From a virus (taxonomy: Duplodnaviria; Caudoviricetes), in the IMG/VR virus record IMGVR_UViG_3300002091_000027, positions 1 to 64,000 of that record: 64,000 nucleotides of DNA, one strand, 5' to 3'. Positions within the stretch are counted from its first letter, which is position 1; the number at the start of each line of letters is the position of its first letter. The notes below the pieces were generated by a model, which saw only the letters and a list, made by a program, of their open reading frames with translations, was not told the DNA's origin and did no database searches. Shown piece by piece: positions 1 through 31,797 of the stretch. Position numbers and translations under genes: made by a program.

Positions 1-3000
1 TCTGACCCTTCACGACTTGCTACTAGTTATTCTGCTACTGTAAGCGGTGCAACAGGCAGTACCACAATTGTATTCTCATACAATACTTCTTCAATGAGTT
101 CTACAGACAAACTTTCAATTGTTATTGATGAATACGCTGAAAAGTTTCAACCAGTAGAAGAACTTTATGACCCGGTTGGAAAATTCCGTGTAAGTACTCC
201 ACAATCACTTATTGACACCGACTTTGAGTATGGTAACCAGACTTCAAAGTGGGAAGCAATAGGAGCAACTAATTGGCACCCTGCTGCGTACAACCTCTAT
301 CCACCAATTAGTCAACCCACTAATTCTCTTGCTACTGTTGCTAGTATTTCTATCCCAATTGGTAGTAAAACAGTCACTGTAACTACATCGGGTGCACACG
401 GTTATGTTGCTGGTCAACCAATTAGTGTCCAAGATTCTCAATTTATGTCAGCAAATGGTAATTTTGTTATTGAATCAGTTACCACTAGTGGATTTACTTA
501 CAGTGCCAAAGCTGTTAATACATCTAATGCATTAACTAGTATTTTTGACCCTTATAAAACACAAGTTTGGCAACAACAGTACTATACGAATGCTGCAATT
601 GGTGGTGCTCCAACAGTGGTAGCAAGTGGAAATCTTATTTCTGTTACAACTACCGTGCCTCACACCCTACACCTTGGAAATGAAATCGCTATAACCGGAA
701 CAGCTACAGCAGCTGTCAACGGAAATTTCTTTGTAACAGGAATTACAAGTGCTAGTGGATTTACCTACTTTGTACCTAGTGGTACCATCTCTAGTGGTGC
801 AATTACGGCTACATCAGCGTCTGTTTATGCACGTAATCAATCAATGTTTGCACAACGTCCATTTGATGGTGGTGTATTGTTTGGTAGTCAATCATTGTCA
901 AACCTACAGTCTTCAATTAGACAAACTCGTAGAAACTTCCACTACCAATCCGGTAAGGGTCTAGAAATGGCTACTGGTACAATTCTAAAAACTTCTTTCA
1001 TTGTTGATTCTCTAACTTCAAATGGTACAGCAATTGGTTCAACTATTACAATCCAAACTAGAGAGCAACACAATTTGACTCCTGGACTTTCAATTAATAT
1101 TGCTGGTGTTGCAACTAGTGGATATAATGGAAATTATCTAATAAATACTATATTGAATGCTACACAATTTACAGTGCTAGCAACCACTACATTAGGTAAC
1201 ACTAGCCCTACAGACTCCCCAGGTGTATTTGCAGTTACAGTTAATGGTTGGTATGGTTCCAATCAAAGAATGGGATTGTTTAGCCAAGAAAATGGTATTT
1301 TCTTTGACTTTGATGGACAGCAACTTTATGCTGTATTGAGAAGTTCTACAAAACAATTATCCGGTCGTGTGACTGCAACCCAAGGTAGCACAATCCTTAC
1401 TCAAACAGACAGTAATTTCCCAACAATTTTTAGCAAACAACTTACCCCTGGTCAATACATTGTAATTCGTGGTCTTAGTTACAGAGTAACAGATATCATC
1501 AGTGACACTCAGATTAACATTAGTCCAGCTTATCGTGGAATTACTGCTAGTTATGTCACTATGACTGCAACTGTTGATACTGTAATCCCACAAAATCAAT
1601 GGAATATTGATCGTTTAGACGGAACTGGTCCTAGTGGTTATACAATAGACTACACTAAAATGCAAATGTGGTACGTAGACTACTCTTGGTATGGATCAGG
1701 TTTTATTCGTTGGGGTATAAGAACTACAGATGGACAAATTCAATTTTGTCATAAATTAGCCAATAATAATATCAACACCGTTGCTTATATGAGATCTGGT
1801 AACTTACCTGGACGTTATGAGACAAGTAATTTGCCACCATTAGTAACTACAACAAGTAGTGTATTGTCTACAGATACAACTCTTCAAACTACAAGTACAT
1901 TGAACGCAGCTGGAACTAGTGCATTCCCTGCATCAGGTACCCTTTTGATTAGAAACTATGCTGTTGGTACAGAATATGTTAACTATACTGCCGTTACTAC
2001 TAGTGGATTTTCTGGTTTAACTAGAGGAGTTGCAACAACTACTACTTCAGGAACTTACCTTGCACTTACAATGGCTTCAGGTCAAACAGTTGGTTTTTCA
2101 TCTTCAACTATTTCTGGAGTTCAAGTTGGTATGAGAGTAGTGCCTTCCGGTTTCCCAGATAATACTTATGTTAGTAGCATTGTGGGTAGTGGAATTAACT
2201 TTAGTAACGCCTACTATGGTACTTCAAACCCAACAGTCGTTTTCCAACAGATGGGTTTACCTGCATCAAATTTCACTTTCAGCTCTACTAGTCCAACAAT
2301 AGTTGAACTGGCTACTCCATCACATAGTCCTTTGTTTAGCCACTGGGGAACAGCAGTTACTATGGACGGTGGATTTGACCAAGACAAAAATTTGCTTTTT
2401 ACTTATGGTCAAACATTACCAATTACCCTAGCATCTGGTCAGACAAAAGCACTAATGTCTATTAGACTTGCACCAAGTGTTGACAACAGTCAAATTAGTT
2501 CATTGCTTGGTTCTCACGAACTTACTAACCGTGTTCAGCTACAACTTCAAACACTAGACGTTGCTGTTACTGCTTCTGGTGCACCTTCACTTAACGTTGG
2601 TGGTGGTAACGTATTGATTAAAGCTTACCTAAACGCAACTCCAGTTCTAATATCAGGCGGTACAATTCCAGCATGGGTAAATGCAGTAAGCAATGTCAAT
2701 ACTCCAAATTCATCATTGAGTCAAATTGCTGACTATTCATCTGTAACAAATGGAGTTACAACTGCAAGCGGTTTATTTGGTGGTGAAGCTACTGCAGGAT
2801 TCTTTGTAAGTACTACTCAAGAAGTAGATGTATCCAAAGTTAGAGATCTAGGTAACTCAATTCTAAGTGGTGGAGGAACTGGATTCCCAAATACAGGTAT
2901 TTATCCAGACGGTCCAGATACCCTAACATTGGTTGCTCAAAATGTGGGAGTTGTTCCAGTAAACATACTTGCTCGTGTTTCATGGGTAGAGCCTCAAGCT

Positions 3001-3003
3001 TAA
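1..3003 (+). CDS. Large beta-rich virion structural protein (fibre/baseplate-associated), 5'-truncated by the window edge
   Basis: Frame 1 is open from base 1 (SDPSRLATSY...YNTSSMSSTDKL), so the ATG at 94 is internal. T/S/G-rich; contains a DPVGKFRVSTPQSLIDTDFEYG segment typical of phage structural proteins; heads the virion operon. Confidence 0.7.
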   Translation, partial: SDPSRLATSYSATVSGATGSTTIVFSYNTSSMSSTDKLSIVIDEYAEKFQPVEELYDPVGKFRVSTPQSLIDTDFEYGNQTSKWEAIGATNWHPAAYNLYPPISQPTNSLATVASISIPIGSKTVTVTTSGAHGYVAGQPISVQDSQFMSANGNFVIESVTTSGFTYSAKAVNTSNALTSIFDPYKTQVWQQQYYTNAAIGGAPTVVASGNLISVTTTVPHTLHLGNEIAITGTATAAVNGNFFVTGITSASGFTYFVPSGTISSGAITATSASVYARNQSMFAQRPFDGGVLFGSQSLSNLQSSIRQTRRNFHYQSGKGLEMATGTILKTSFIVDSLTSNGTAIGSTITIQTREQHNLTPGLSINIAGVATSGYNGNYLINTILNATQFTVLATTTLGNTSPTDSPGVFAVTVNGWYGSNQRMGLFSQENGIFFDFDGQQLYAVLRSSTKQLSGRVTATQGSTILTQTDSNFPTIFSKQLTPGQYIVIRGLSYRVTDIISDTQINISPAYRGITASYVTMTATVDTVIPQNQWNIDRLDGTGPSGYTIDYTKMQMWYVDYSWYGSGFIRWGIRTTDGQIQFCHKLANNNINTVAYMRSGNLPGRYETSNLPPLVTTTSSVLSTDTTLQTTSTLNAAGTSAFPASGTLLIRNYAVGTEYVNYTAVTTSGFSGLTRGVATTTTSGTYLALTMASGQTVGFSSSTISGVQVGMRVVPSGFPDNTYVSSIVGSGINFSNAYYGTSNPTVVFQQMGLPASNFTFSSTSPTIVELATPSHSPLFSHWGTAVTMDGGFDQDKNLLFTYGQTLPITLASGQTKALMSIRLAPSVDNSQISSLLGSHELTNRVQLQLQTLDVAVTASGAPSLNVGGGNVLIKAYLNATPVLISGGTIPAWVNAVSNVNTPNSSLSQIADYSSVTNGVTTASGLFGGEATAGFFVSTTQEVDVSKVRDLGNSILSGGGTGFPNTGIYPDGPDTLTLVAQNVGVVPVNILARVSWVEPQA

Positions 3004-3015
3004 GAAAGGCCCATT

Positions 3016-3984
3016 GTGCCATTAAGTAGAATTCAGCAGGGTGGAAATTCTGACCCACTTATTATAAACAATGTTGTTGCTAGTGGACTTGTAGTTAATG
3101 GAACTACCACTACCAGTGGGCTTATAGTTAATGGTAATGAAAGTATTAATGGTAGTCTAACTATAAGTGGTGGCTTAACTGTGAAAGGGACAGTTGGGTC
3201 TTTAGTACTAAGTGGATCTATAACTACACCTGGTACTGCCTTAGTACTGCAACAAACTGGAGATCAGTTTGGTACTACACAATTGCAGATTCAAAATAGA
3301 AATGGACTTAATGGAATTCTAGTTAGTAATCCTAGTATTCCACTAGTTGACTATGGATCTCTACCTCAAAATTATCTTGTTCCAGCAGACTTTAGAGCAG
3401 AAGGCAGAGTTGGTAGTACATATAGCGCTAATACTACTAGCGGAATCGAATACCAAATGTGGCCTGCAGGTGCACAAGGAGCTACAGCTGCTCCTGCATT
3501 TGCTGTAAGTGCATATGCCGCTATATTTACTGTACCAGTACAGTTGACTTCACCTACACTTCAAGGTGCAATTGAAAAATTTGGTGTTTTTGGTAGTGCA
3601 TTGTCAGCCTCTACTCCGGCTACAATGAATGGTAATCAAGCAACACTTTATATGGCAACTGCTGCCACTCCTACTGCAACATGGACAGTTAACTTACAGA
3701 ACTGCCCTACAGTTGCTGGTCAATCAATAACTTTTGCAATTACAGTGCTAAATGGTAGTACAGCATATCTTCCTAGTAATATAACTATCAATGGAGTTCA
3801 GGCAGGAGCCTCTAGTAGCGCTCTTCCAGCTCATAAAGCAGTTAACAACAATATTACCACTTACTATCAGGGTGGTACCGCTTGGAGCGCTGCAGATACT
3901 AGTGAACTAGATGTCTATACTTTTACAGCAATGTGTACTGCTTCCGGAGTCTACACTCTACTCCTAGGGCTCAATAAATTCTAA
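3016..3984 (+). CDS. Putative tail fibre / minor virion protein
   Basis: GTG start after AAGAAAGG. N-terminal beta-strand repeats (GLVVNG, GLIVNG, GSLTISGGLTVKG) and a globular C-terminal domain; structural context. Confidence 0.55.
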   Translation: MPLSRIQQGGNSDPLIINNVVASGLVVNGTTTTSGLIVNGNESINGSLTISGGLTVKGTVGSLVLSGSITTPGTALVLQQTGDQFGTTQLQIQNRNGLNGILVSNPSIPLVDYGSLPQNYLVPADFRAEGRVGSTYSANTTSGIEYQMWPAGAQGATAAPAFAVSAYAAIFTVPVQLTSPTLQGAIEKFGVFGSALSASTPATMNGNQATLYMATAATPTATWTVNLQNCPTVAGQSITFAITVLNGSTAYLPSNITINGVQAGASSSALPAHKAVNNNITTYYQGGTAWSAADTSELDVYTFTAMCTASGVYTLLLGLNKF

Positions 3985-3985
3985 T

Positions 3986-4981: not shown

Positions 4982-4990
4982 AGGTAAATT

Positions 4991-6379: not shown

Positions 6380-6415
6380 ATCTACCGTAGTCTATAGGAA
6401 TATAAAGGAATAATC

Positions 6416-6907
6416 ATGACCGACGTAAGAGACAACATTGTTGCTTGGGCTAAGTGGGCTGCTGCCAACCATGCTAAATTTAACTATACCCAAGGGCCAC
6501 TTCGCATGAGTAATATTAACCGCCCAGGTAAATTGCCAGTTAATGCCGATTGTTCAAGTTTTGTGACCCTCTGTTACAATTGGGCTGGAGCACCAGATCC
6601 TAATGGTCAAAGCTACAACCACACTGGTTACACTGGAACTCTTCTTTCTCACGGAAAAAAGATCGATCTTAAAGATGTTCTACCTGGCGATGTTATTGTT
6701 TACGGTGGTGGCACTGGCGAACACACAGCACTTATTGTAGATGTAACAGGTGTTAACGCTAAAAACCCCCTTACGGTGTCCCATGGACAACAGGGCGACC
6801 CTTCGTACTGCCACGTCAATCAGGATGGTCGCAAACCACAGACCTACCTACGCTTCAACACAAGTGCAATTAATGCACACTCTTCTCACATTCCACCAAC
6901 AAAGTAG
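6416..6907 (+). CDS. NlpC/P60 cell-wall endopeptidase (likely endolysin)
   Basis: ADCSSFV catalytic Cys, PGDVIVY and EHTALI catalytic His; RBS AAAGGA. Confidence 0.85.
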   Translation: MTDVRDNIVAWAKWAAANHAKFNYTQGPLRMSNINRPGKLPVNADCSSFVTLCYNWAGAPDPNGQSYNHTGYTGTLLSHGKKIDLKDVLPGDVIVYGGGTGEHTALIVDVTGVNAKNPLTVSHGQQGDPSYCHVNQDGRKPQTYLRFNTSAINAHSSHIPPTK

Positions 6908-6912
6908 GATAA

Positions 6913-7839
6913 ATGACTACACGTTATCGTGCTAATTTCTATTCAGGACTTGCTACCGTAAATTCTACGGGTTCTTTGACAATTTCTGGCACTGGATTCC
7001 CTAATCTTTCAATTCCAGCAGGGCAATACATGGCTATTACCCTTAATCCTGGATATTATGGTGCTACTACAAATGCAGAAATTGTTTACATTGGACCTAC
7101 AACTACTTCTGGCGTTGCTCAAGTTATTAAGAGAGGCGCCGAGGGAACCGTTGCTATCACTGGAACAAACATTCCATGGGTAGCGGGTCCTACACCTACT
7201 GACTTTGACGTTTCAAACCTTACTGCTACGGGCACTCTATCGCTAAGTGGTACTGGTGGTCTTAATGTTAGTGGAACAACCAACTGGGGCGGCAATGTTA
7301 ATTATTTGCTTGGTTCAACCGTTGCTTATACCAATACAAGAATTTATAACGTTCCTTTTGGAAGAATGTATGCTGCTGCTCCAACCGCTATATCTGGAAG
7401 CACTTACACTAATATAACCACAGTTGTTACTGGTACCTATGGAGTTACAAATGGTGGTGTGACTTTTAGTGGCAGTAAATTAGTTGTACCAATAGATGGT
7501 TATTATCAGATCAATGCATCCGTTGGATTTAGTTCAAATACCAACAGTGCTCCATTAACTGCTGGTATTTATGGTGTTCAAGTTGCTGTTTATAATAATA
7601 GCAGTGTTTACGCTAACTATTATGTTGCTGCCAACAACTATTTAGCTCCTAGTGGTACTGCTGGATTATACCCTGAAACTATTGTATTATCAGATATTGT
7701 TTATTTAAATACTGGATGGTCAGTCAATTTAATTGCTTATAATGCTGCAGCATCAGGTACATTTGTTTACACTGGCTCAGGAACTTCAGGACCACAAACT
7801 ACTTATTTATCACTTTCCTATATTGGATCTGTAGCGTAA
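6913..7839 (+). CDS. Minor tail/collar fibre with C1q/TNF-like C-terminal domain
   Basis: T/G/S-rich; C-terminal GVTFSGSKLVVPIDGYYQINASVGF resembles the C1q-like jelly-roll signature. Confidence 0.55.
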   Translation: MTTRYRANFYSGLATVNSTGSLTISGTGFPNLSIPAGQYMAITLNPGYYGATTNAEIVYIGPTTTSGVAQVIKRGAEGTVAITGTNIPWVAGPTPTDFDVSNLTATGTLSLSGTGGLNVSGTTNWGGNVNYLLGSTVAYTNTRIYNVPFGRMYAAAPTAISGSTYTNITTVVTGTYGVTNGGVTFSGSKLVVPIDGYYQINASVGFSSNTNSAPLTAGIYGVQVAVYNNSSVYANYYVAANNYLAPSGTAGLYPETIVLSDIVYLNTGWSVNLIAYNAAASGTFVYTGSGTSGPQTTYLSLSYIGSVA

Positions 7840-7848
7840 GCTTAATTA

Positions 7849-8712
7849 ATGAGACAACGCCCAATACCACAATATGCTGCAGAACCAGTTGGTATAACAA
7901 CGTATGTCAGCGGAACTTTATCAGATCCTGATAATCAATACGTTTGGCTTAATATTACGAACTCTGACAATGGAGTAGTAGTTTTAGCTTCTGGACAAGC
8001 TACTTATGAAAGTTTGGGTACGTATCAATATACTTTAAATTCAAACCAGACTTCAATCCAAGGCAATTACACTGTTATCTGGAACTATTCTATTAATGGA
8101 AGTCCAAGAAAATATCAAGATAATTTTGTTATTACTGATCAAATGCCTTATTGGAGCAATCTAGATACTCAAACTCGTCAAATGGTTACCAACATTGTTC
8201 ACCGATTAGACAAAAGTTTTGACAGTACTTCTGGTGGACCATACTTGCAAGAACTACAACAAAGTGGTTTTATGATGTATGAAGAAGTAGCTATGGTTAT
8301 GCAAGACGAAACTATGGACTATATTAACTTTGAATTTCAACCTATTTTTAGTCCAGCCTACGAAGTTGGTATGAATGCTACTGTACCATTCCCAACTACT
8401 TATTACGGGGTATTGGCTACACAGACGTATGCTCACTTTCTAAAGCACATTGCTCGTAACTACATCGAACAGCCTACTCCAAATGGTATGAATGCTGCCT
8501 GGATGGACCGTAGAGACTACTACAACCGTTGGTGGCAACTTTACCTATTTGACAAAGAAGTTGCTGATAAACAACTTCGTCAGATGAAGCGTCAATACAT
8601 GGTTGGATCTAAGCGAAGCCTTCTTGTTGCTGGTGGCCTTATCCCACGCATGTTCACAAACCCAGCACGTCCCCACTTCCAGTACGCTGCTGTAAACATG
8701 GGTGGAGCATAG
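7849..8712 (+). CDS. Head-tail adaptor with N-terminal Ig-like domain
   Basis: N-terminal beta-sandwich-like region, helical C-terminal half; first of four neck-type genes before the sheath. Confidence 0.55.
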   Translation: MRQRPIPQYAAEPVGITTYVSGTLSDPDNQYVWLNITNSDNGVVVLASGQATYESLGTYQYTLNSNQTSIQGNYTVIWNYSINGSPRKYQDNFVITDQMPYWSNLDTQTRQMVTNIVHRLDKSFDSTSGGPYLQELQQSGFMMYEEVAMVMQDETMDYINFEFQPIFSPAYEVGMNATVPFPTTYYGVLATQTYAHFLKHIARNYIEQPTPNGMNAAWMDRRDYYNRWWQLYLFDKEVADKQLRQMKRQYMVGSKRSLLVAGGLIPRMFTNPARPHFQYAAVNMGGA

Positions 8713-9930: not shown

Positions 9931-9931
9931 T

Positions 9932-10612
9932 ATGTTTATTACAGCAGTTAAAACAGCCATAGTTGAAGCTCTGGATGCAGGGTTTAACGCTATCCATATT
10001 GGTACACCATCAGATACAAGTCTTGATCTTACTCCAAATAGTATAACTATCGAGTATCCGCAAGAGTTAGTAGCATGGCCAACAATCCTTGTTCATTTTC
10101 GAGCAAATAAAGTCCAATGGTTTGGTCTTAATCCTGATGTTTATTCTGTTGCTCCAAGTGGAATCGTTATTAGCGGAACCACGTACTCTGGTACAAACGT
10201 AGATCGATCAGGATATTTTGAAGGCAACATTGACCTTCAAATTATGGCTATGCACTCTGAAGAACGTGACCGATTAATGGATAGCGTTTCAAACCTTATT
10301 CTTATGGGTCAAGGAAGTGCTGGAAGCTCTGCTTTTTATAACAGTATTTACAACAATTCTTTGGTTGGACTTACATTGTTGCCTAGTACATATACAAACT
10401 TGGGTGACAGCATTAGCGCAGGAACCCCTTTTAGTCCTGAAGAATTAACCTATGAAGCCAGTATTCGTATCAACTGTATTGGCGATTTTTATGCTACAAA
10501 ATACGACTACACCGTACCACAAATTACCAAAATTATTGCATCTGGAACTCCATATTACCCGTCTGTTTCTTCTCTATACCAGCCGGGGACGCCTTGGTAC
10601 CCAATCGCTTAA
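9932..10612 (+). CDS. Tail terminator
   Basis: Directly upstream of the sheath; SITIEYPQ...PTILV and IDLQIMA...EERDRLMD pattern typical of terminators. Confidence 0.6.
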   Translation: MFITAVKTAIVEALDAGFNAIHIGTPSDTSLDLTPNSITIEYPQELVAWPTILVHFRANKVQWFGLNPDVYSVAPSGIVISGTTYSGTNVDRSGYFEGNIDLQIMAMHSEERDRLMDSVSNLILMGQGSAGSSAFYNSIYNNSLVGLTLLPSTYTNLGDSISAGTPFSPEELTYEASIRINCIGDFYATKYDYTVPQITKIIASGTPYYPSVSSLYQPGTPWYPIA

Positions 10613-10662: not shown

Positions 10663-10677
10663 CGTGAAGGAGAATGT

Positions 10678-12234
10678 ATGCCTATTACCAATTACGTTAC
10701 GCCGGGAGTTTATGTAACCCAGTCGGGTGCGCCATTAACTACTGTCGCCAACAACAACCTCACCATTGCTATTGTTGCTGACCAGCCTACACCAGGCTCT
10801 ACTACTGACACATTTAATAGCGTTGTTTCAGCCAGCGGTATTACTATTGGTCAACTTACAACTCCAATGGTTAACACAACATCAACTGGAACATATGCTT
10901 CCTACTCTGGTTACACAGTAACTTGGGTAAGTGGATCTACTACCGTTACCGGTACTTATGGTGTTAATTTTAATATTTCTACACCTAGCGGTGGACCATG
11001 GAGCTACATTACTACCAGTGGTGTTAGTGCTAGTGGAACTGCTCTTCCAAGTGGTCAAGTAGGCATTACCTACGGACACAACTGGGGTGCTTACGGTACT
11101 TACTACAGTTTCAATAGCCTTACAAACGCTATTGGTGCAGCTGTTAGTGGTACAACTATTCTTAACCCAGCTGTTCTAGCTGCTCAATTTGCTTTCCAGA
11201 ATGGCGCTAGCACAGTAAGTGTTATGCCAGTTGCTCGAATTGCAAGTTCAGGTACTGGACCTGCTCAATATAATGACTGGGCACGTGTATTTGTTGCAAC
11301 CAGCGGAACTACAAGTGACCCAACTTACTTGATGAACCTAGTTGGCGTTGATGTTATTGTTCCACTTTACTCATTCGTTAGCACAAGCGGTGCCACTGCT
11401 GGCCAAATTATTCCTTATGGTGCAGGTACAGTTGCCAGTGGAATTAATTCTTACTTGAATAATCAGTTTAGCTATGGAATTCTACAACGTGCATTTGTTG
11501 GTGTAGATGGTACTGCTAATGGAGTTAATGCTACACAAATGCAAACATTGGCCAGTGGTTTCAATAGTACAAGGATTACTCTATCTTACCCTTCAGTAAT
11601 TAACTATAACCCTGGTTTTAACCCAACTACTGGTTTGAGCACTGCAAGCTTTAATATCCCAGGATACTATGTTTCAGCAGCTCTAGCTGGTCTATTTGCT
11701 GGTCAACCAACCGTAGCAACACCAATTACTAACAAAACTGTAAATGGTTTCAATGCAATTCCTAACCAAATTAGCGATATTGATGCAGCTACAAACTACC
11801 TAACTTATGGTGTTACTGTTGTAAGACAAAAGCGCGATAACAATTTCTGGGTTTACCAAGGTTTAACCACAAATACAACTTCATGGGTAACTCAAGAAAT
11901 TTCTATCAATGCTATTGGCGATCAACTTGCAAAAGCTGTAAAGAATGATCTTGTTAACAGCAGCCTTGTTGGTGGTCCGTTGACTAATGTTACTTCAGCA
12001 GCTGTTCTAGGAACAGTGCAAGCTACACTAACCAACCAATTGAGCAATGGCCTTATCCAAGCTTACCAAAACTTGGCATTGTCGCTCAACCCAGCTACAC
12101 CAACAACCGTAAACGTCACATTCCAATATGCTCCGACATATCCGATTAACTACATCCAGGTTTCAATGAGTCTAAACACTCAGACTGGTACTGTAATTAC
12201 TCAGAATGCTCAGAGTAACTTTGTAGTCTACTAG
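10678..12234 (+). CDS. Contractile tail sheath protein
   Basis: YVTPGVYV N-terminus; AAALAG, PITNKTVNGF and conserved C-terminal FQYAPTYPINYI; RBS GAAGGAG. Confidence 0.9.
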   Translation: MPITNYVTPGVYVTQSGAPLTTVANNNLTIAIVADQPTPGSTTDTFNSVVSASGITIGQLTTPMVNTTSTGTYASYSGYTVTWVSGSTTVTGTYGVNFNISTPSGGPWSYITTSGVSASGTALPSGQVGITYGHNWGAYGTYYSFNSLTNAIGAAVSGTTILNPAVLAAQFAFQNGASTVSVMPVARIASSGTGPAQYNDWARVFVATSGTTSDPTYLMNLVGVDVIVPLYSFVSTSGATAGQIIPYGAGTVASGINSYLNNQFSYGILQRAFVGVDGTANGVNATQMQTLASGFNSTRITLSYPSVINYNPGFNPTTGLSTASFNIPGYYVSAALAGLFAGQPTVATPITNKTVNGFNAIPNQISDIDAATNYLTYGVTVVRQKRDNNFWVYQGLTTNTTSWVTQEISINAIGDQLAKAVKNDLVNSSLVGGPLTNVTSAAVLGTVQATLTNQLSNGLIQAYQNLALSLNPATPTTVNVTFQYAPTYPINYIQVSMSLNTQTGTVITQNAQSNFVVY

Positions 12235-14290: not shown

Positions 14291-14674
14291 ATGAGCGAAT
14301 TAGCTTATCTTAAAGGTATTTTAAATCAAGCTGACTTGAATCAAATTCAAGAAGCCATGCTTTCTGTTGTTGTTCGTCGCCACAAAGAAGAAGAAGTTGA
14401 ATTTGAGACGGCAAAATTTGAACAAATGATGTTTATTAATAATCCTTCTTTGTATAAAGAATATATAGAGAATAAAGAACAGCAAGAAATCAGTGGAAAT
14501 CAGAATGTCAAATGGATGGCACCTGAAAGCATTGAAGAAGCTGCTGAGCTGGTCAATATGTTCAGCGACATTGATAAACAGCTTAAAGAAATGGACAATG
14601 AACCTGTTGCACAAATGGATTTCCTTAGTGCATTGGGTGGCATTAACTTAGACGAGATTGGAGGTGATGAATAA
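14291..14674 (+). CDS. Tail assembly chaperone extension (T-like; C-terminal part of the frameshift product)
   Basis: Lies in the -1 frame of the upstream chaperone, has no clear RBS of its own and abuts the tape measure gene. Confidence 0.75.
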   Translation: MSELAYLKGILNQADLNQIQEAMLSVVVRRHKEEEVEFETAKFEQMMFINNPSLYKEYIENKEQQEISGNQNVKWMAPESIEEAAELVNMFSDIDKQLKEMDNEPVAQMDFLSALGGINLDEIGGDE

Positions 14675-18315: not shown

Positions 18316-21038
18316 TGGGAATAAACAACGCGGGTACTTTTACCTATACGCCAGATATTAGTTGTACAATTAGTACAATGAAAAATGGCGTCATTGATGT
18401 ATCTGATGATATTATTAATTTTCAAGTTACTCGCAATTTAAATGCAGTTAGTACATTTAACTGTACGCTTGCCAATCCAAGACGTAAATATAACCGTGTA
18501 ATCAATACCATGGATAAAATTACGGTATTTCTTAAAAGAACTAATTTTGTACAAGTTTTTACAGGTTATGTAACATTAGCACCTATTGAAACATTGGTTC
18601 CTACACCCATTCAAATCCAAGCAGCGTGCACATTAAGAAACCTCCAGCAAACATACTGGGATGACACTTTACTAGAATACCAATCATTGTTGCTTAACTA
18701 TATGGATAGCACTGCTGCCAGTAGCAATGCAACCCTAAATGATGGTGGTGTATCGCAAGTTATTGTTAACTTATTGACAAAAGTAGCTGGCTGGGATCTC
18801 GGTAGAATTCATGTTGCTCCAGTTCCTCAAAAGTTTCTTGAATTAGCTGGTAGCATTGCTAAAAACCAAGATATTTATAATAGCACACTTAACCAAAGTG
18901 CAGTGCAAACTATATCTACAATTGTTGGTGTTGACAATATCACCAGTGGTCAAAGTATTTCTAATCAAAAATACGTTTACGGAAAACAACAAACTGTCAA
19001 AGATACTGCTGCACCAGATGGTGGTGTAGGAACAAGTTTTAGTGTATCTAGAGCTGTAGCATTAAAAACTGCATCTATCAACAGCAGAAATAAACAATAT
19101 TTTCCCGGACCAAATGCACTTAATCCAGTAAACATCGATGCTACTAATCAAGATATTTATTATTGTAGTTTGCCGTTTTCTTATATTAATAGTACTGATT
19201 CAACAATTGTTAGCAATGCTAAAAGTTGGATTTCTAATAATGCTTATAGTAAAGACAACAAATATAGTGGAAGAATATTACTACTCACTAACACAAAAAC
19301 TCATAGGGTTGTTGCGCTTAGAGCAACTGGCGTAACACAAAAAGTTGATAAAAATGGAAATTTGCTTTATCAAAATAATTCAATTGTACCAGATCCTAAC
19401 GTTAACTATGTTCAATGTCACCCAGGTGTTGTTGCTTACTTAAACGCTGCCATTGGTGATCCAACCAAATGGACTGATAAAGTTGGTGTTGATTTTTCTT
19501 ATATTGAAATATCATGGGCTGATCAATCACAAGTATCTAAACCAGGACCTCAAAATGTAATTCAACAATCAACAGTAACCAATACTCAGTCATACCTTGG
19601 TATCAACTCACAAAACAATGTAACTTCTCAAGTTCTTACAAGCGCCGTTGATGCATTAAATTATTATTTGCGACAACAATTTGGTGCTCAATATAGTCAA
19701 GATACCAGTGGACCTCATTATAGAGAAACACCAAACAACCCTTATACACATTCTGGTGGATGGTTTGACTGCTCTGGTCTACTGCAATGGGCTTACCGAC
19801 AAATTGGTATTACTATTGGTGGTAATACATATACACAATTTGGTACTGGTAGCAACTCAGATAACAACCGATGTGGTTTATGGGTTCCTCCCAATCAAAT
19901 GCCACAACCTGGTGATTTATTGTTTTGGAATGTTCCTAGTGATGGGAATAGACAACCGGGTCACGTAACAATTCTTTCACAACCTTTTAGTGGTAAAAAA
20001 GGTCAAGGAACGATGATTCAATCGTCTACTTACGGCAAACCTGTAGGAGAATCACCAATTTACTGGTCAGATATCAAAGATGGTGGTTCACCTAAGGGTT
20101 GGGGTATGACATACATGGGTGCTCGCAGACCTTTGACATTGCATCCAGGTTGGGGTCAATCATTTAAACAAACTGTAACAGTACCAAGTACATCTGCCAA
20201 CTCTAATTACAACACTACAGAAACTTCTACATTGGTTACTGATATTCAAGGGTGGAATACTGAATGGATTTCACCAAACTATAACATTACTGCTTCTACC
20301 ATTCAAGGTACTCCACAAGCATTTATATTAGATAATCCATTGATGCAAGATTTACACCAGGTTGTACAAGCTGGTTTAAGAACTTATATGAGTGCTCCTA
20401 ATGGAGACTTTGTTGCATGGTTTCCTGACTGGTATGGCGTTTATGGTATGGATCCTGTAATGGAAATATGTGATATTGAAATTATAGACTTTCAAATTTA
20501 TCACAATGACGATGCACTCGTTACCCACGTAGCAGTGATTGGTGATACTTCTGGTATTGGTCAATCTATTAACATTGTTGACTATATGAGTACGCAAGGT
20601 ATTGTTAGTATTCAAGATGTTACTACTATGCAACTTTTGTTTGGTACCAAAGTTGGTAACACGTCAACAGACCAACAGAACGCTCAAATCGCTCTTAATT
20701 TCTTACAAAGATATGGTATTCGACCATTTCCACAAGAAGTCAATGTTATCCACAGTCATGCTTTGGAATACTTTTTTGGTTTACAAACTTTTATGCAACA
20801 ATGGGCTAACCAATTTACAAGTAATGTAACACTTACTTTTATGCCTGAACTTTACCCAGGTATGAGAGTTGTTGTTAATTTAGATAATGAAAATGGTGGT
20901 CAAGATCAATACCAATTCTATTGTGTATCTGTAACCCACAATGGTGACCGCAGTGGTGGTTTTACCACACAAGCAACAATGACCGCTCCTATGAAAAATG
21001 GAACAGTTATGCACTATGGATTGGAATTCATATCATGA
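18315..21038 (+). CDS. Baseplate hub / tail lysin with inserted NlpC/P60 domain
   Basis: Hub-like termini (C-terminal MPELYPGMRV...YCVSVTH); internal FDCSGLLQWAYRQIG...PQPGDLLFW...GHVTI. Confidence 0.8.
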   Translation: MGINNAGTFTYTPDISCTISTMKNGVIDVSDDIINFQVTRNLNAVSTFNCTLANPRRKYNRVINTMDKITVFLKRTNFVQVFTGYVTLAPIETLVPTPIQIQAACTLRNLQQTYWDDTLLEYQSLLLNYMDSTAASSNATLNDGGVSQVIVNLLTKVAGWDLGRIHVAPVPQKFLELAGSIAKNQDIYNSTLNQSAVQTISTIVGVDNITSGQSISNQKYVYGKQQTVKDTAAPDGGVGTSFSVSRAVALKTASINSRNKQYFPGPNALNPVNIDATNQDIYYCSLPFSYINSTDSTIVSNAKSWISNNAYSKDNKYSGRILLLTNTKTHRVVALRATGVTQKVDKNGNLLYQNNSIVPDPNVNYVQCHPGVVAYLNAAIGDPTKWTDKVGVDFSYIEISWADQSQVSKPGPQNVIQQSTVTNTQSYLGINSQNNVTSQVLTSAVDALNYYLRQQFGAQYSQDTSGPHYRETPNNPYTHSGGWFDCSGLLQWAYRQIGITIGGNTYTQFGTGSNSDNNRCGLWVPPNQMPQPGDLLFWNVPSDGNRQPGHVTILSQPFSGKKGQGTMIQSSTYGKPVGESPIYWSDIKDGGSPKGWGMTYMGARRPLTLHPGWGQSFKQTVTVPSTSANSNYNTTETSTLVTDIQGWNTEWISPNYNITASTIQGTPQAFILDNPLMQDLHQVVQAGLRTYMSAPNGDFVAWFPDWYGVYGMDPVMEICDIEIIDFQIYHNDDALVTHVAVIGDTSGIGQSINIVDYMSTQGIVSIQDVTTMQLLFGTKVGNTSTDQQNAQIALNFLQRYGIRPFPQEVNVIHSHALEYFFGLQTFMQQWANQFTSNVTLTFMPELYPGMRVVVNLDNENGGQDQYQFYCVSVTHNGDRSGGFTTQATMTAPMKNGTVMHYGLEFIS

Positions 21039-22192
21039 GTGTGACAGGTCAGAAATATGACACTAAATCAGGTGTAAGAAAAATTACATTAACTAGTGGT
21101 CCACAATTACACCCTCTTAGTGATACAAACAGTGCTTCTCAAAATTACTATTGTCTTGGTTTTGATGGTAGCGGTTTTCAATATCAAATTGACCTACAAG
21201 CATTACCAGCTGGTGTTGTTTTAGATCAAATTCAACAGAATCAAGTTTGGTGGGTAGAAAAACGAACAACTTTATACAGATTATATCTATATGCTGGTTT
21301 GTTTGATTCCAATACACGTCAAATTGATAGTACGTATCCATTGCCATCACCGGTAACTAGCAGCCTTAACAATGTAACTGTAAGTGGCAACCTAGTCGTT
21401 AATGGGATTGATATATCTAATTTAATTATTGCCGAAGCCCCTCCTGGCGTGATGATGGATTTTGCTGGTTTAAAAGCTCCTAAAGGTTTCTTGTTGTGTG
21501 ATGGATCCAGTTATTCAACAACTACGTATGCTAACTTATTTGCTGCTATTGGCTATGCATGGGGTGGATCAGGCACTAGTTTTAACGTACCAGATATGCG
21601 AGGAAGAGTATCTATCGGCGCAGGTTCTGGAACTGGTCTTACAAATAGAACTTTAGCAGCAGTTAGTGGTGAAGAGAATCATATACTTTTAACCACAGAA
21701 ATCCCTAGTCACACTCACGTTGTAACTTACTCTGGTTATAGTGGAAATACAGGAACAGCATCAGCAAGTTTTAGTTTATCTACCTCAGCTGGATCTACAG
21801 GAACTGGCACTACAGGCACTGGAAATACGGGAAGTACTGCTGCAAACATTCAAGACCCTGGTCACGTTCATAATGGACCTAGTTACAACTTTATTATTAA
21901 CAATAGTAGTGGTGCTTTTGCTTATGGAAGTGGTGCCTCCAGATTAGCGCAGGCCACCTCTACAGCAACTGCTTATACGGGTATTTATGACGCTGGTCAC
22001 ACCCATACAGTACCTAGTTTGTCAATTCCTGCATTAAGTATCCCAACATTGTCCGTAGGTGGTTCGATTACTCAAAATGCCATGAGTTTCTCCGTTCCAG
22101 CGGCAACTATGACTTCTAGCGGTACTGGTGGTGGATCTGGCCATAATAACATGCAACCATATGCCGTAGTTACCAAGATTATCAAGTACTAA
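21035..22192 (+). CDS. Spike-position protein with tail-collar domain and His-rich fibre tip
   Basis: PPGVMMDFAG..APKGFLLCDGSSYS...FNVPDMRGRV collar motif; PSHTH, GHVH, GHTH and HNNMQPY...IIKY end. Confidence 0.8.
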   Translation: MSVTGQKYDTKSGVRKITLTSGPQLHPLSDTNSASQNYYCLGFDGSGFQYQIDLQALPAGVVLDQIQQNQVWWVEKRTTLYRLYLYAGLFDSNTRQIDSTYPLPSPVTSSLNNVTVSGNLVVNGIDISNLIIAEAPPGVMMDFAGLKAPKGFLLCDGSSYSTTTYANLFAAIGYAWGGSGTSFNVPDMRGRVSIGAGSGTGLTNRTLAAVSGEENHILLTTEIPSHTHVVTYSGYSGNTGTASASFSLSTSAGSTGTGTTGTGNTGSTAANIQDPGHVHNGPSYNFIINNSSGAFAYGSGASRLAQATSTATAYTGIYDAGHTHTVPSLSIPALSIPTLSVGGSITQNAMSFSVPAATMTSSGTGGGSGHNNMQPYAVVTKIIKY

Positions 22193-22221: not shown

Positions 22222-22224
22222 ACT

Positions 22225-25222: not shown

Positions 25223-26184
25223 TGGCTGGTAATCTATTTTCGATATCACAGCACACCACACTTTCTACTAAAGTTGCTAACTTTCCAGAAGATGTCTATA
25301 CTTTTCACGATAATGACTATCTAACTATTTTGATGACCGTATTGCTGGGCAACAGTGGTACTGGACAACTAAAAAACATTCAAACAGTAGCTAGATTAGG
25401 CCAAGAAATTATTGAATATGACAACCTTGACAATATACTTGGTCAAATATTTAACATGCAAAGAATCTCTTCTGAGATTTATAGTTTTGCTACAAATCCA
25501 TTTATTGATCAATTATTGCAAAGCAATTGGCAAGAAATTGTTCGTAAAGATGCAAATTATCGTGAACGTTTGTTGGGTGCTGCCGAAGCATATCAAATTG
25601 GTGCAACACTATGGGCAATTCTTACACTTTGCGAAGCGCTGTCTGGATTAAAATTTTATGTAGTTGAAGGGTGGAGAACACCTGGCTATGGTAGATCACA
25701 AATAAATTCAGCTCAAGAAATTGTTCTTATACCTTTAAGTGACGGCAATCTATTCAAATGGGATCAAGGTAAAGCACAATCAATTTTACATACAATACAA
25801 AACATTATACCATCAAATTTTGTTATTAGTTTTGGAGCTATGCAAAATACATTAACTGCAATTCCATTAACCGCTGTAACTGTTTCTGGTTCTGAACCAG
25901 CTGGTTATTCGGAATATTTTTATCTTCAACCAACTGTAACTGCCAAGAACATTCTAACACCAGCAAATATTGCACCTGGGGCCGCTACACGCTATTGGTT
26001 AATCAATGGTTTAAAAGTAACTGCTCCATATTTTTCTCATTTACAAACACAAGAAGCATATATTGATGTTACTGGAAATATTGCTAGCATTACTTGCACT
26101 GATACCCAGGGAAATGGAGCACCTAGCAATAGCGTTGCTCAATCTACATTGCAAGTTACTTCTACTTTATACGGTGCACAATAA
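25222..26184 (+). CDS. Baseplate wedge subunit (P2 gpI-like)
   Basis: Follows J; LDNILGQIF...DANYRERL...GATLWAI pattern. Confidence 0.65.
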   Translation: MAGNLFSISQHTTLSTKVANFPEDVYTFHDNDYLTILMTVLLGNSGTGQLKNIQTVARLGQEIIEYDNLDNILGQIFNMQRISSEIYSFATNPFIDQLLQSNWQEIVRKDANYRERLLGAAEAYQIGATLWAILTLCEALSGLKFYVVEGWRTPGYGRSQINSAQEIVLIPLSDGNLFKWDQGKAQSILHTIQNIIPSNFVISFGAMQNTLTAIPLTAVTVSGSEPAGYSEYFYLQPTVTAKNILTPANIAPGAATRYWLINGLKVTAPYFSHLQTQEAYIDVTGNIASITCTDTQGNGAPSNSVAQSTLQVTSTLYGAQ

Positions 26185-29100
26185 TGCCATTTCTTCCTAA
26201 TAACGTTGATCCATTAAAAGATTATGTAACAGGTGGTGCATTACCACCGTTAACAATTGATGGATTAGTATACAACAAAGTATATGCACAAACTGGCGTT
26301 ATTGATACTGTAGGCGCAGTTTTACAAAATGGCTACACTGACCCAAATTCCAATATTATCAATGGACAAAATAATTTTGGTAAATTTGGTCAAACGCAAG
26401 AATCAAGTTGGATTTCTAGACAAGATTTTGGTGGACCAGACAGCGTCCCAGTTGTATTAACTTATAATTTTAATACAGAAACTGATTTAAATATTGTTAG
26501 TTTTCAAGTTTTAAATGTTCCATGTTTTGTAGAATTGGGTTATTACAATGATAACAACGCTTGGGTAGCACTGCCAGGGTCATCAACATTTGTAGTAAAT
26601 GGCAATAATGACATTTTTAATTATGACAATTTTTTACACTTAGAATACATGGCTCCTGAAACGTTGTCGTTAGGATCTATTTCTTTAAGAATTACACGAA
26701 ACCAACCAGTTCAAACTATCAACAATGGTATATTTACTAATGTTGCTTATTCAATTGGTGTACAATCATTTCACGTTAATTTGCAAGTTATTCAATCAAG
26801 TGATATACCGCCTAATGTTACAAATGGTTCACAAGCAATCATTACTCAAAATCGTTTAGGTTTTATTGAAGACTATAACTATATCAATTATCCTGTAAGC
26901 AATATATTCACCAATGATAATAAATATTGGAAATGTTCACCACAACCTACTGGTGACTCTATTGTTTATTTCTATGCATGTATTGCTGATAACGGAACAG
27001 CTAATCCAACACCCAAAACTATAAATCGTTTATACATTGACCCTTTATACAGTGGATGTCGTTTTAATGTTTATGCAACAACCAATGGAACTCTTGGCGG
27101 AACAATAGATCCTGATACTTTTACATGGACACCAATTCAAAGAGACTTTACTCTTAGAAAAGGCATTTATGAATTACCTCCTGTTGCTGCAACGTACCTT
27201 AAATTTGAATTTGTTAAATTAATTGCAGAACCTTATGATTTATCAATCGATTCTATAACAAGAACAATTAATGTTTTTCCAGCCAGTATTGAAGAATACT
27301 ATTACCAACTTGAAAATGCAATTATTGATGGCAACTCTGTTCAATATTCTCACATTGGCAACAACAATAATCCACAAACTATTACATCTACCAACATTAA
27401 TTCATCAACGTTGTTTGGTCTTTCATCTAACACAATAGCAAATGCCAATACATGGCCACAACTTAGTGCTTTAAACAATTCTCAACTTGGTGGCAATACA
27501 ACAACAGTTGCCAACAACACCAATTCATACATTATTGATCCAACTATGAGTTATAAAACTATTAATAGTGATGGTACTTACAATGGTGTTGCATATAATC
27601 AATTTTTGCAACGTCGTTTTATGAACGTGCAACAACATTCATATACTCAAACTACTATTAATCAATGTTGGCACGAAGCATATTTTACTGGTATTCAATA
27701 TTTAACAGCTTTTTATGAAAAACAATTTGATGATATTAGAATTTTACCAACTGAATTAAAAGGTGTAGATGCTGATGCTTTTGTTCAACAAAATAACGTT
27801 GCAGCTGTACTCAATGCTTCAGAACCAGTTTACGTAGATTGGCAACCAACTCTTGAAAAATTTAATAGTTTTAACATCGGTGCATTAACCAGTGAATGGC
27901 AAAGTTTCCTTACCGATAATCAAGTTTTAATGAATGACCCAGTGGTTTTAAATGACAATCTTTTAACTAATTGCACTGCAACAACAATTGGTCAACTTGG
28001 TTCAAGTTCAATTATTTCTATTTCTGGAAACCTTTTAGGTTTTCCTTACAGTATTCAATCAACAAGCTATCCTGTTTCTTACAACGAACTCGTTTACGAC
28101 GATGCCAATTTTAGTGAAATAGATCTATGGACTGCTTCTGGTACAACCACTATTACATCTACTCCAGTAATATATGTATCGGGCACCTCAGCCAAAACAG
28201 TTAGCGGATTATCTATAAGTGGTGGTAATCATACTGCTATGTTTAGATTTGATATTCCCAATGTTGATTATGGTGGAAAACAAGCGTATACACTTCAATT
28301 TGGTACTCCGGATATGGGTACTGTAGGGTTTGGTAGTTACAACCCAATAACTTCAGGAACTAACTATTATTTCTATACAGGAGTACAAGTATCTGGTACA
28401 GCTTCCGGTATATCAACAACTAATTCAACAATTAGCGCAAGAACACAATTCTATAATTCTTTTACCAATACAGTAATTTCTGGAACTGTATTCAGTGGTT
28501 CAAATGTTGCATTTGTTAGTGGAACTGGAAGCAATATAGGTTATGTAACATCTACAAATTATACTACGAGTGGTGTTCCAGCTGGTTCTATTCAATTTGT
28601 TGTTAGTGGAACCACCAATTATAATCTCTATCAATTAGGTGTTTTCCCAACACCAACAACTAATTGGCAAACGCCACAAGATCGTAAATATATGCGAGTT
28701 AGTTCTATTGGTAGAATTATGTTGCCATTTACTAATTTGGGATCATATCGTTTTTGCCTATGTGCATTTGCAGCTGATGGTACTGAAATTCAATTAACAT
28801 GTCAAGATTATGGTCCGGGAGAAATACCACTTGCTACGTGGTTTGAACAACGCTTAGAAGCATTTACTTACACTCAATATACTGATTTCTTTACTAAAAT
28901 ACTACAAATAGATATTACTATAAATGAAGTATTTTATGTAAGTGCTCTTGCACCTTTTTATCACCCAATAAAATACGAATATACTACAATTAGTGGATCT
29001 AACTATCCTGATAATTACCAATACATTACTGGTGATATAAATAATCCAAATTATTTTGTAACCGCTACATCTGGAATACCAGCCAGTGGAATTCAATTAA

Positions 29101-29354
29101 GAATGACAGCGCTTGATCCAGATGTATTTATTTCTGGTATTAGTTTAATTCCTTATTATAAATCTAATCCATATTATGCTGATATCAATATAGACTATGC
29201 TGGTAATAGCAAAACCAATCAGTTGAGTGCACGTACTGCAGTTATAGATAAACCATTCTTTCAGAGTAGTTCTCTTTTTTATCCAACAAGGTTTACTTTG
29301 CCAGTAGTTGTTGGACCAAACGTTGGTTACATCACATCAAACTTCGGTTATTAA
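26184..29354 (+). CDS. Large baseplate / receptor-binding scaffold protein
   Basis: 1056 aa, beta-rich with discoidin-like segments (SWIS, KYWKCSPQP); last gene of the virion operon. Confidence 0.6.
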   Translation: MPFLPNNVDPLKDYVTGGALPPLTIDGLVYNKVYAQTGVIDTVGAVLQNGYTDPNSNIINGQNNFGKFGQTQESSWISRQDFGGPDSVPVVLTYNFNTETDLNIVSFQVLNVPCFVELGYYNDNNAWVALPGSSTFVVNGNNDIFNYDNFLHLEYMAPETLSLGSISLRITRNQPVQTINNGIFTNVAYSIGVQSFHVNLQVIQSSDIPPNVTNGSQAIITQNRLGFIEDYNYINYPVSNIFTNDNKYWKCSPQPTGDSIVYFYACIADNGTANPTPKTINRLYIDPLYSGCRFNVYATTNGTLGGTIDPDTFTWTPIQRDFTLRKGIYELPPVAATYLKFEFVKLIAEPYDLSIDSITRTINVFPASIEEYYYQLENAIIDGNSVQYSHIGNNNNPQTITSTNINSSTLFGLSSNTIANANTWPQLSALNNSQLGGNTTTVANNTNSYIIDPTMSYKTINSDGTYNGVAYNQFLQRRFMNVQQHSYTQTTINQCWHEAYFTGIQYLTAFYEKQFDDIRILPTELKGVDADAFVQQNNVAAVLNASEPVYVDWQPTLEKFNSFNIGALTSEWQSFLTDNQVLMNDPVVLNDNLLTNCTATTIGQLGSSSIISISGNLLGFPYSIQSTSYPVSYNELVYDDANFSEIDLWTASGTTTITSTPVIYVSGTSAKTVSGLSISGGNHTAMFRFDIPNVDYGGKQAYTLQFGTPDMGTVGFGSYNPITSGTNYYFYTGVQVSGTASGISTTNSTISARTQFYNSFTNTVISGTVFSGSNVAFVSGTGSNIGYVTSTNYTTSGVPAGSIQFVVSGTTNYNLYQLGVFPTPTTNWQTPQDRKYMRVSSIGRIMLPFTNLGSYRFCLCAFAADGTEIQLTCQDYGPGEIPLATWFEQRLEAFTYTQYTDFFTKILQIDITINEVFYVSALAPFYHPIKYEYTTISGSNYPDNYQYITGDINNPNYFVTATSGIPASGIQLRMTALDPDVFISGISLIPYYKSNPYYADINIDYAGNSKTNQLSARTAVIDKPFFQSSSLFYPTRFTLPVVVGPNVGYITSNFGY

Positions 29355-29355
29355 T

Positions 29356-29384
29356 TTGATTTAATTGATATTTCCTGATATGAT
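29356..29384 (+). promoter_or_regulatory. SigA-type promoter TTGATT-N17-TATGAT giving a leaderless mRNA
   Basis: The predicted +1, 7 nt after the -10 box, falls on the A of ATG 29391; no SD present. Confidence 0.65.
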
Positions 29385-29390
29385 TTCTTC

Positions 29391-31247: not shown

Positions 31248-31290
31248 CTGAAAGGATGTAAAAAAGAAGGAAAACTGGTCCTAGATAGTG

Positions 31291-31384
31291 AAGAGAGCTT
31301 AATCTAAAGCTTCTTCCTGAAGGGCCTGGTCTTCCTCGGGAGTTGCAGTCGGTGTTCTTACCTTGACTCCTCCCGAGGCCCTTC
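31291..31384 (+). ncRNA. Structured GC-rich RNA element upstream of whiB (family unassigned)
   Basis: Hairpin 31291-31315; CCTCGGGAG (31334-42) pairs with CTCCCGAGG (31370-78); GAAGGGCCT (31319-27) pairs with AGGCCCTTC (31376-84); inner AGTC/GACT and GGT/ACC helices. Confidence 0.5.
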
Positions 31385-31395
31385 CGTAAAACAAC

Positions 31396-31797
31396 ATGGA
31401 AAATTTAACAGTAGATTATAAATGGCAAGATGATGCTATATGTGCTAAACTAGATCTCTCAATGTTCTATCCAGCGCATGGACAAAAATATTCCAAAGAA
31501 GCTATTGAAGCTTGCAAAATTTGTCCAGTCAGTTATGAATGTTTAAAGCATGCTTTAAAGTATGAAGAACACGGGTATTGGGCTGGTACAACACCAGTGC
31601 AACGTGTCAAACTTCGTAAAAACATGGGTATAAAAGTAGAAAATATCACGTTTGAATCTGATAAAATTGTCAAGGAAGAATTGTTGAAAAAAGCTGAAGC
31701 TGCTTCTAATCAAAAAATTAAAGGTCGTGGCAGAAAACCATACAAGAACTTGACAACAGACTATGTTGATGGTACTATCCTAGATGAAGATCTATAA
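31396..31797 (+). CDS. whiB: WhiB-family Fe-S transcription factor
   Basis: WQDDAIC, CKICPV...C (four Cys), GYWAGTT turn; C-terminal KGRGRKP. Confidence 0.92.
   Translation: MENLTVDYKWQDDAICAKLDLSMFYPAHGQKYSKEAIEACKICPVSYECLKHALKYEEHGYWAGTTPVQRVKLRKNMGIKVENITFESDKIVKEELLKKAEAASNQKIKGRGRKPYKNLTTDYVDGTILDEDL

Follow-up and report, generated by a model that had tools for sequence, protein, structure and literature searches.

Proteoglycan O-xylosylation takes place at Ser-Gly and needs acidic neighbours and a GT14-type enzyme. The triple beta-helix of T4 gp5 is built on an 8-residue V-x-G repeat, and beta-spiral shafts have Gly-containing short repeats. The autotransporter glycosyltransferase TibC heptosylates Ser, not Thr, on beta-helix turns, including Ser-313 in the QNSGG turn of TibA (PMC4358343), and the mycobacteriophages Che8, Corndog and Myrna are cited in PMC12363180 as glycosylating virion proteins. 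The DNA studied here (the window) is the 64,000-nucleotide stretch at positions 1–64,000 of the IMG/VR virus record IMGVR_UViG_3300002091_000027 (Caudoviricetes), part of a 79-kb linear viral contig with a G+C content of 34–42%. Its virion proteins carry a large excess of the dipeptide Ser-Gly (SG), which is tentatively read below as a beta-turn building element, and a GT4-type glycosyltransferase gene (GT4) lies 3’ of the genes that encode them.

Positions 1–29354 form a myovirus tail, baseplate and fibre module, with genes for the sheath, tube, chaperones, tape measure, baseplate J and a large minor tail protein. The module is syntenic with cluster C mycobacteriophages (e.g. Myrna) and with the Gordonia phage Pupper. 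On its 3’ side are a helicase gene, a gene for a WhiB-like regulator, GT4 and replication genes. A first-pass annotation of this DNA had read [ITVAY]-S-G as a sequon for a virion-wide glycan coat, plausibly installed by GT4.

The locus resembles the glycosylating mycobacteriophages (Che8, Corndog, Myrna) in its actinophage-type genome, its synteny with cluster C and the possession of its own glycosyltransferase. It differs in that no homologous GT4 occurs in them; Myrna has GT2 only, and an SG observed-to-expected ratio (O/E) of 1.06. A 2023 study by Freeman is said to have found phage glycosylation on the capsid and the tail tube. If those are the targets, the locus differs here too – the tube of the window has no SG and 2.5% Ser, and the capsid protein of G010, the 89%-complete genome of a relative, has 2 SG vs 0.8 expected. 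The likeness to the autotransporter systems (TibC/AAH acting on TibA and AIDA-I) would lie in many Ser on short turns of repetitive beta-structure, served in their case by one dedicated cytoplasmic GT-B enzyme. Unlike theirs, the enzyme of the window is GT4-type (a Pfam scan at E<=0.01 lists only families of the GT1/GT4 group and no GT9-type), and the candidate substrates are phage virion proteins of many unrelated folds. With proteoglycan xylosylation the locus shares the Ser-Gly dipeptide, but charged flanks are not enriched ([DEKR]SG O/E 1.05; SG[DEKR] 12 vs 6.8 expected) and the enzyme is GT4-type. The repeats of T4 gp5 and of beta-spirals are like those of a G010 fibre (period 7) in their short period, one Gly per rung and alternating hydrophobics; the differences are an invariant Ser before the Gly and the occurrence of SG in the non-fibrous sheath and J as well, and T4 itself has an SG O/E of 1.11.

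Ser-Gly excess in the virion proteins

Pooling the virion open reading frames (ORFs) of the window, which lie within 1–29354 and encode 9637 aa, SG occurs 168 times vs 87–91 expected, and the reversed dipeptide GS 72 times. The z score for SG was 8.9 when whole proteins were shuffled, 10.2 with local shuffling in 30-aa blocks and 9.4 in 12-aa blocks. The non-virion ORFs of the window contain 36 SG vs 36 expected. Among all 400 dipeptides SG is the most deviant by far; the next are GT (z 3.9) and CH (z 3.9, on 3 counts). It is also the sole enriched x-Gly pair in the virion ORFs, with NG, DG and TG at or below expectation (O/E 1.0 for NG and 1.1 for DG). The SG excess in the virion proteins is real and specific to Ser.

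Several simple causes could be ruled out. A DNA-level cause is rejected, as the Ser codons AGT, TCT, TCA and AGC followed by the Gly codons GGT, GGA and GGC have shares at SG sites roughly proportional to general usage; the bias is therefore at the amino-acid level, with selection on protein. Nor is the excess a by-product of local richness in Ser and Gly, because shuffling within 12- or 30-residue blocks leaves the z score unchanged. A shared, duplicated domain that carries the motif is ruled out at the level of BLAST, by which the SG-rich proteins have no similarity to one another.

The residues around SG are far from random. Thr is enriched 2.5-fold at position -2, with V, T and I at -3, A, I and Y at -1, T, I and F directly after the Gly, and Y, L and F two residues further. 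The extended motif [AITVY]SG occurs 104 times vs 36.5 expected (z 12, O/E 2.85), [AITVY]SG[TIFV] 51 times vs 11.7 and T-x-S-G 46 times vs 12.1. The corresponding O/E values for [AITVY]NG and [AITVY]DG are only 1.26–1.27. The motif extension of the first-pass annotation holds, and the two comparisons by which its sequon might have been overturned – composition-shuffled controls (168 vs 87–91) and NG/DG as equally good turn fillers (about 1.3-fold vs 2.85-fold) – both left SG far above the alternative.

Distribution among and within the proteins

The main features are listed below, all on the + strand, with SG counts given as observed vs expected.

1..3003, +: ORF1, a large virion structural protein, its 5’ end cut by the contig start; SG 26 vs 11.3, GS 9; phrog_5838, E 4e-250
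6913..7839, +: 308-aa fibre-like protein; SG 11 vs 3.9, z 4.1, GS 6; weak TNF/C1q-like Pfam match, below cut-off
7849..8712, +: 287-aa conserved protein of the virion module, phrog_2791; SG 4 vs 1.1, z 3.2; 73–99% identity in relatives
9932..10612, +: 226-aa protein upstream of the sheath; SG 5 vs 1.9; phrog_2748, function unknown
10678..12234, +: tail sheath, phrog_2839; SG 14 vs 4.8, GS 2; all SG in residues 16–293
14674..16947, +: tape measure, the negative control; SG 6 vs 9.3, despite 10.6% Ser and 11.6% Gly
21035..22192, +: fibre with a tail-collar domain; SG 13 vs 5.8; PF07484 (Collar), 65.7 bits
22679..25222, +: baseplate J with a central insertion of ca. 500 aa; SG 29 vs 8.2, z 8.1, GS 5; PF04865
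24436..24474, +: 15-bp tandem repeat within J, encoding I-S-G-N-T; 2.6 copies; Tandem Repeats Finder score 71, 95% matches
26184..29354, +: 1056-aa minor tail protein, phrog_2840; SG 18 vs 6.7, GS 10

Baseplate J is the most SG-rich protein, and all of its 29 SG are in residues 176–700 (6.4 expected there). In the sheath, residues 1–300 contain 14 SG vs 4.1. The minor tail protein has 17 SG vs 4.3 in residues 601–1000, of which 14 fall within 614–808. Conserved cores of the proteins, taken together, have a single SG vs 5.2 expected. The zeros in single cores are individually uninformative, because only 0.6–2.4 SG are expected per core, and those in the tube and the chaperones are equally so, with 0.3–0.5 expected.

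Most of what had been noted earlier about these proteins stood. The hand counts were exact or nearly so for the sheath (14 SG and 2 GS), J (29 and 5), ORF1 (26 and 9) and the fibre at 6913 (11 SG), the tape measure indeed lacks an excess, and the 15-bp duplication that adds ISG copies is the tandem repeat at 24436–24474, which encodes ISGNT; the repeat region falls in gaps in the J of most relatives. The cluster in the 1056-aa protein, put at about 12 SG in some 200 residues, turned out slightly denser. The claim that the bias is positional was borne out for the enriched parts of the sheath, J and the 1056-aa protein; the zeros of the cores, tube and chaperones count for little one by one. A loop had been reported in a ‘terminator’: the ORF at 9932–10612 does have a loop with four SG, APSGIVISGTTYSGTNVDRSG, from residue 74, but a terminator function is not established for it.

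Conservation in relatives

Homologous IMG/VR loci were compared, 20 for the sheath and 14 for J, with identities of 34–89%. Every one of the 20 sheath-region loci has an SG O/E between 1.28 and 2.20, and 12 of 12 J homologues carry the excess, with 16–32 SG vs 7–11 expected. Among the many conserved sites are sheath residue 53, an SG in 20 of 20 relatives, residue 77 of the same protein, kept in 19 of 20, and J residues 238 and 253, at which no relative departs from SG, even at 34% identity. The Ser of SG sites has a conservation of 0.70 in the sheath and 0.61 in J, vs 0.37 and 0.41 for other Ser, and the Gly of these sites is conserved to a similar degree (0.73–0.75). About half of the conserved Ser columns precede a Gly, and in 16 of 29 of these the relatives encode Ser with AGY as well as TCN codons. 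Where relatives depart from SG, the commonest alternatives are NG, TG and GG. The SG excess is a selected, lineage-wide trait.

The genome of G010 shows the rest of the virion as well. Its SG excess covers the tail, baseplate and fibre block, the homologue of ORF1, and two small capsid-flanking proteins (175 aa, SG 4 vs 1.0; 242 aa, SG 7 vs 1.9). In the major capsid protein there is no enrichment (2 vs 0.8); the portal has 6 vs 3.1, and in a pair of ca. 800-aa proteins of the head module SG is at expectation. The excess is thus limited to the tail, baseplate and fibre genes and a few others, and the ‘virion-wide’ coat of the first-pass annotation does not hold.

The richest protein in G010 is a 1410-aa fibre with no PHROG match (G010:C1:62248-66480; L058:2251-6480, minus strand), which has 64 SG vs 22.9 expected. 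In it, 17 of the spacings between SG are exactly 7 residues and 6 are of 14, corresponding to the repeat S-G-x-phi-x-T-phi, where phi is a beta-branched or hydrophobic residue. The strict 7-residue repeat spans residues 150–300 and 400–470.

Unrelated phages and cyanophage homologues of ORF1

Virion protein sets of seven unrelated phages were compared with those of the lineage. Five of the seven are without an excess (O/E 1.06–1.29) and in the other two it is weaker (1.35 and 1.55). The values are 1.06–1.22 for Myrna (1.06), Pupper, T4 (1.11) and Bacillus phage G, 1.29 for Synechococcus phage S-CBS4, 1.35 for Tetrasphaera phage TJE1 and 1.55 for Eggerthella phage LE2-3. The non-virion proteins of TJE1 show the same weak excess, and the large fibre-like proteins of S-RSM4 have an O/E of about 1.6–1.8. 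That the excess is a generic property of phage virions is ruled out for Myrna, Pupper, T4 and Bacillus phage G; it is partly true for the S-RSM4 fibres, LE2-3, S-CBS4 and TJE1 (1.3–1.8), yet without the preference for Ser at phi-x-G-phi. At such sites Ser makes up 31% in the window, 30–34% in four of seven relatives and 13–21% in the other three, and 7–14% in six outgroup phages.

ORF1 has full-length homologues in the T4-like cyanomyoviruses S-RSM4, S-RIM44 and Sf-CH1a, at 40–42% identity. Compared with the three, at about 46% identity, ORF1 shares seven SG sites with every homologue and another three with two of the homologues; about 15 are lineage-specific, mostly with flanks rich in T and A. 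None of the three cyanophages has a homologue of the GT4 of the window or a match to PF00534 or PF00535, and S-RSM4 also has no match to three further glycosyltransferase families. This absence is not proof, because the PF00534 search also missed the annotated glycosyltransferase of S-CBS4. LE2-3 likewise has no match to the same five families, despite its O/E of 1.55.

Cyanomyovirus homologues of ORF1 were found at L051:19794-23120, L052:94-3408 and L053:94-3414, and the remaining tail module is actinophage-like; this large virion gene looks, from its distribution, to have been exchanged between very different groups of phages. In G010 (G010:C1:62248-80218) the homologue of ORF1 is found upstream of the genes for portal and capsid and is separated from the fibre genes by ca. 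11 kb. The window has, directly after ORF1 (3003–3016), the gene for a 322-aa protein whose match to the 1410-aa G010 fibre is confined to the C-terminal 160 aa of the latter, and in no other relative’s locus is ORF1 at this position. The placement may be due to a rearrangement or deletion, or to an assembly join.

The glycosyltransferase gene

Two genes 3’ of the virion module bear on the interpretation.

31396..31797, +: WhiB-like regulator; several WhiB PHROGs, E ~1e-17; ends 11 nt upstream of the GT4 gene
31808..33103, +: GT4-type glycosyltransferase, the proposed writer; PF00534 39.5 bits (cut-off 26.4), PF13692 36 bits (cut-off 27); phrog_2170

The presence of the WhiB-like gene suggests an actinobacterial host. 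In GT4, the N-terminal GT-B acceptor domain scores below its cut-off (PF13439, 16.9 bits vs 28.5), and the enzyme belongs to no curated NCBIfam family, all NCBIfam matches being far below their cut-offs. Its matches among solved structures are GT4 enzymes; the best is B736L of chlorovirus NY-2A (3oy2), over residues 186–403 and with a weak E value of 2.7e-4.

Orthologues of GT4 were found in 9 of 10 relatives’ records, at 50–80% identity, the sole miss being a 35-kb fragment. Its conservation exceeds that of the sheath and of J, and it is kept where these two fall to 34–37% identity; it is a core gene of the lineage. Every relative’s record long enough to judge has both GT4 and the motif excess, and no member of the lineage without GT4 was found. 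In metagenomes there are more than 1100 homologues at E<=1e-10; the best 120 of these have identities of 50% or more and come from contigs of up to ca. 138 kb. A GT2 gene adjoins GT4 in five relatives (G002, G004, G005, G008 and G009) and lies within about 3.5 kb in two more (G001 and G003). The window and G010 have no GT2 gene with their GT4, and the cassette therefore consists of one constant enzyme and optional ones. Neither G000 nor the 89%-complete G010 has a hydroxymethylase of the thymidylate synthase family, which makes DNA a less likely target of the glycosyltransferase.

A tblastn search of 50,697 phage records with GT4 gave 10 matches, none of them in actinophages of clusters C, F or O, and no mycobacteriophage record has a homologue (E<=1e-5). 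The nearest cultured homologues are those of TJE1 (40% identity), beside genes for a sugar epimerase and a nucleotidyltransferase, and of S-CBS4 (32% identity), inside the head module and beside a second glycosyltransferase. Myrna (SG O/E 1.06) has a GT2 enzyme only and no homologue of the GT4 of the window.

Interpretation of the motif

The analysis demonstrates that the excess exists, that it is specific to Ser and conserved, that SG has a characteristic flanking context and that it is periodic in a fibre of a relative. To account for these findings, we lean – without holding it to be established – towards phi-S-G-phi as a lineage-specific beta-turn building element of beta-rich outer domains and fibres, for which no modification would be needed. 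The motif would form a tight, two-residue turn or kink between short Thr-rich beta-strands, a geometry suggested by its flanks; the Gly would adopt a left-handed conformation, and Ser, a small hydroxyl residue, would be kept for fit and capping. Selection would act on protein architecture, and the motif would be conserved site by site because of it. Copies would accumulate wherever beta-hairpins or fibre rungs are added – the outer domain of the sheath, the insertion of J, the fibres, the 1056-aa protein – and would be absent from helical or enzymatic proteins.

Much of the evidence is what a structural motif should leave behind. Both Ser and Gly are conserved site by site, and the Thr, beta-branched and aromatic residues on both sides of SG are the signature that two strands joined by a very short turn would be predicted to have. 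The heptad repeat of the 1410-aa fibre is the strongest structural evidence, though it comes from G010 and not from the window. Homologous SG sites stand in three cyanophages without a recognisable glycosyltransferase. Enrichment also tracks beta-rich tail and fibre proteins and not exposure as such, the G010 capsid protein being unenriched. In the sole moderately confident part of a J model (residues 480–700), 12 of 13 SG are at strand ends or in turns; no solved structure covers the SG-rich parts. A structural role accounts for sites being conserved and flanked by beta-formers, for the heptad repeat, for the sites in common with cyanophages and for the non-enriched capsid.

Several observations weigh against it. 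The AlphaFold2 models, built from 10–12 sequences, are of low confidence (predicted local distance difference test score 55 for the sheath and 53 for J). Generic turn statistics favour Asn or Asp before Gly, but here NG and DG reach only 1.26–1.27-fold vs 2.85-fold for SG, and structure leaves unexplained why Ser was consistently chosen over Asn and Asp in this lineage alone. Since the Ser share of phi-x-G-phi sites is 31% vs 7–14% in the outgroups, a purely structural idiom must be peculiar to the lineage, and since the SG-rich proteins are without mutual homology, the motif must have arisen many times. A glycosyltransferase is, in addition, co-conserved with the trait throughout the lineage.

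These points bring in the explanation nearest to the first-pass annotation, a sequon, in which the Ser at the tips of phi-S-G-phi hairpins on tail, baseplate and fibres would be O-glycosylated in the cytoplasm by GT4, with GT2 extending the glycan in some relatives. It is compatible with the structural reading, and the two are not mutually exclusive: the same turn could be both structural element and acceptor, as in autotransporter heptosylation. We regard it as possible though rather doubtful. The Ser-specific excess is confined to virion proteins, the tandem duplication of ISGNT adds copies of the motif, and GT4 has orthologues in 9 of 10 relatives’ records and more than 1100 homologues in metagenomes; a constant first enzyme with variable GT2 extenders resembles a glycan builder, DNA is a less likely target with no hydroxymethylase in G000 or G010, and the best structural match of GT4 is a virus-encoded glycosyltransferase (B736L). 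Precedents exist in TibC, which takes Ser and not Thr (PMC4358343), and in the glycosylation of mycobacteriophage virions as cited in PMC12363180. Against this, the lineage offers no member without the enzyme as a contrast. The G010 capsid protein is not enriched; Myrna, reported as glycosylated, has neither an excess nor a GT4 homologue; TJE1 and S-CBS4 do have GT4 homologues (40% and 32% identity) yet only a weak excess (1.35 and 1.29); and SG sites are kept in cyanophage homologues without a GT4 homologue or a PF00534/PF00535 match. GT4 itself follows whiB, outside the late virion module, and no assignment at the family level suggests a protein as its acceptor, and the G010 fibre uses SG as a strict 7-residue repeat. 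The proposal of a sequon with GT4 as its writer is thus supported in part, having survived the shuffled controls and the NG/DG comparison and lost its virion-wide extent. In the form that remains – a sequon read by an enzyme core to abundant uncultured, WhiB-carrying and probably actinobacterial myoviruses, whose tails, baseplates and fibres would be glycan-coated – it may be right, but we would not expect it to be.

Two further explanations deserve less weight. SG might replace NG and DG at exposed turns for the sake of chemical durability, Asn-Gly and Asp-Gly being prone to deamidate or isomerise, to the harm of long-lived virions in water. NG and DG stay at their expected frequencies (O/E 1.0 and 1.1) despite abundant turns and SG is the only enriched x-Gly pair, which would fit, and relatives mostly carry NG, TG and GG at SG sites. 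But NG is not depleted, the pressure should bear on all phages and yet five of seven outgroup virion sets lack an excess, and the substitution pattern may be mutational, because a single-base change turns an AGY codon for Ser into one for Asn or Gly; we consider this improbable. Some other use of an exposed Ser (phosphorylation, acylation, glycosylation by a host enzyme, or a contact motif for glycans of the host cell surface) would have in its favour only that the excess is specific to Ser and limited to virion proteins. The window yielded no kinase, acyltransferase or other writer, none having been searched for, and the heptad repeat and conserved core sites point to architecture, making such a use the least probable of the explanations.

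If the Ser is glycosylated, the glycosylation of phage virions, so far documented in a few mycobacteriophages only, would gain a defined sequon in phi-S-G-phi; across abundant environmental phages, glycosylated virion surfaces would become predictable from sequence, with a bearing on host recognition, the stability of particles and the evasion of antibodies. A purely structural motif would still be a clear, lineage-wide, Ser-specific design rule for beta-hairpins and fibre rungs that standard turn statistics do not predict, and a caution against taking dipeptide excesses for modification sites.

Minor observations

One non-virion protein also has a surplus of SG. It is a 251-aa AAA-ATPase-like protein, phrog_16448, encoded on the minus strand at L054:9019-9771 (contig 73019–73771), with SG 5 vs 1.4 and no GS. 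The counts are small, and the surplus is probably due to chance.

The ORF at 3986–4981 in the window encodes a 331-aa protein with 26% Gly and has several 9-bp GGT/GGA repeats. Its SG count is 8 vs 9.3 expected, and Gly richness alone therefore does not yield the bias. Two relatives encode proteins rich in QG, of 1162 aa (L044:4260-7748; 78 QG vs 19) and 511 aa (L007:2720-4255; 29 vs 9). A replacement of SG by QG in these relatives was ruled out, the QG excess coming from this single repeat protein in each. Both repeat proteins are encoded approximately where the window has its Gly-rich ORF.

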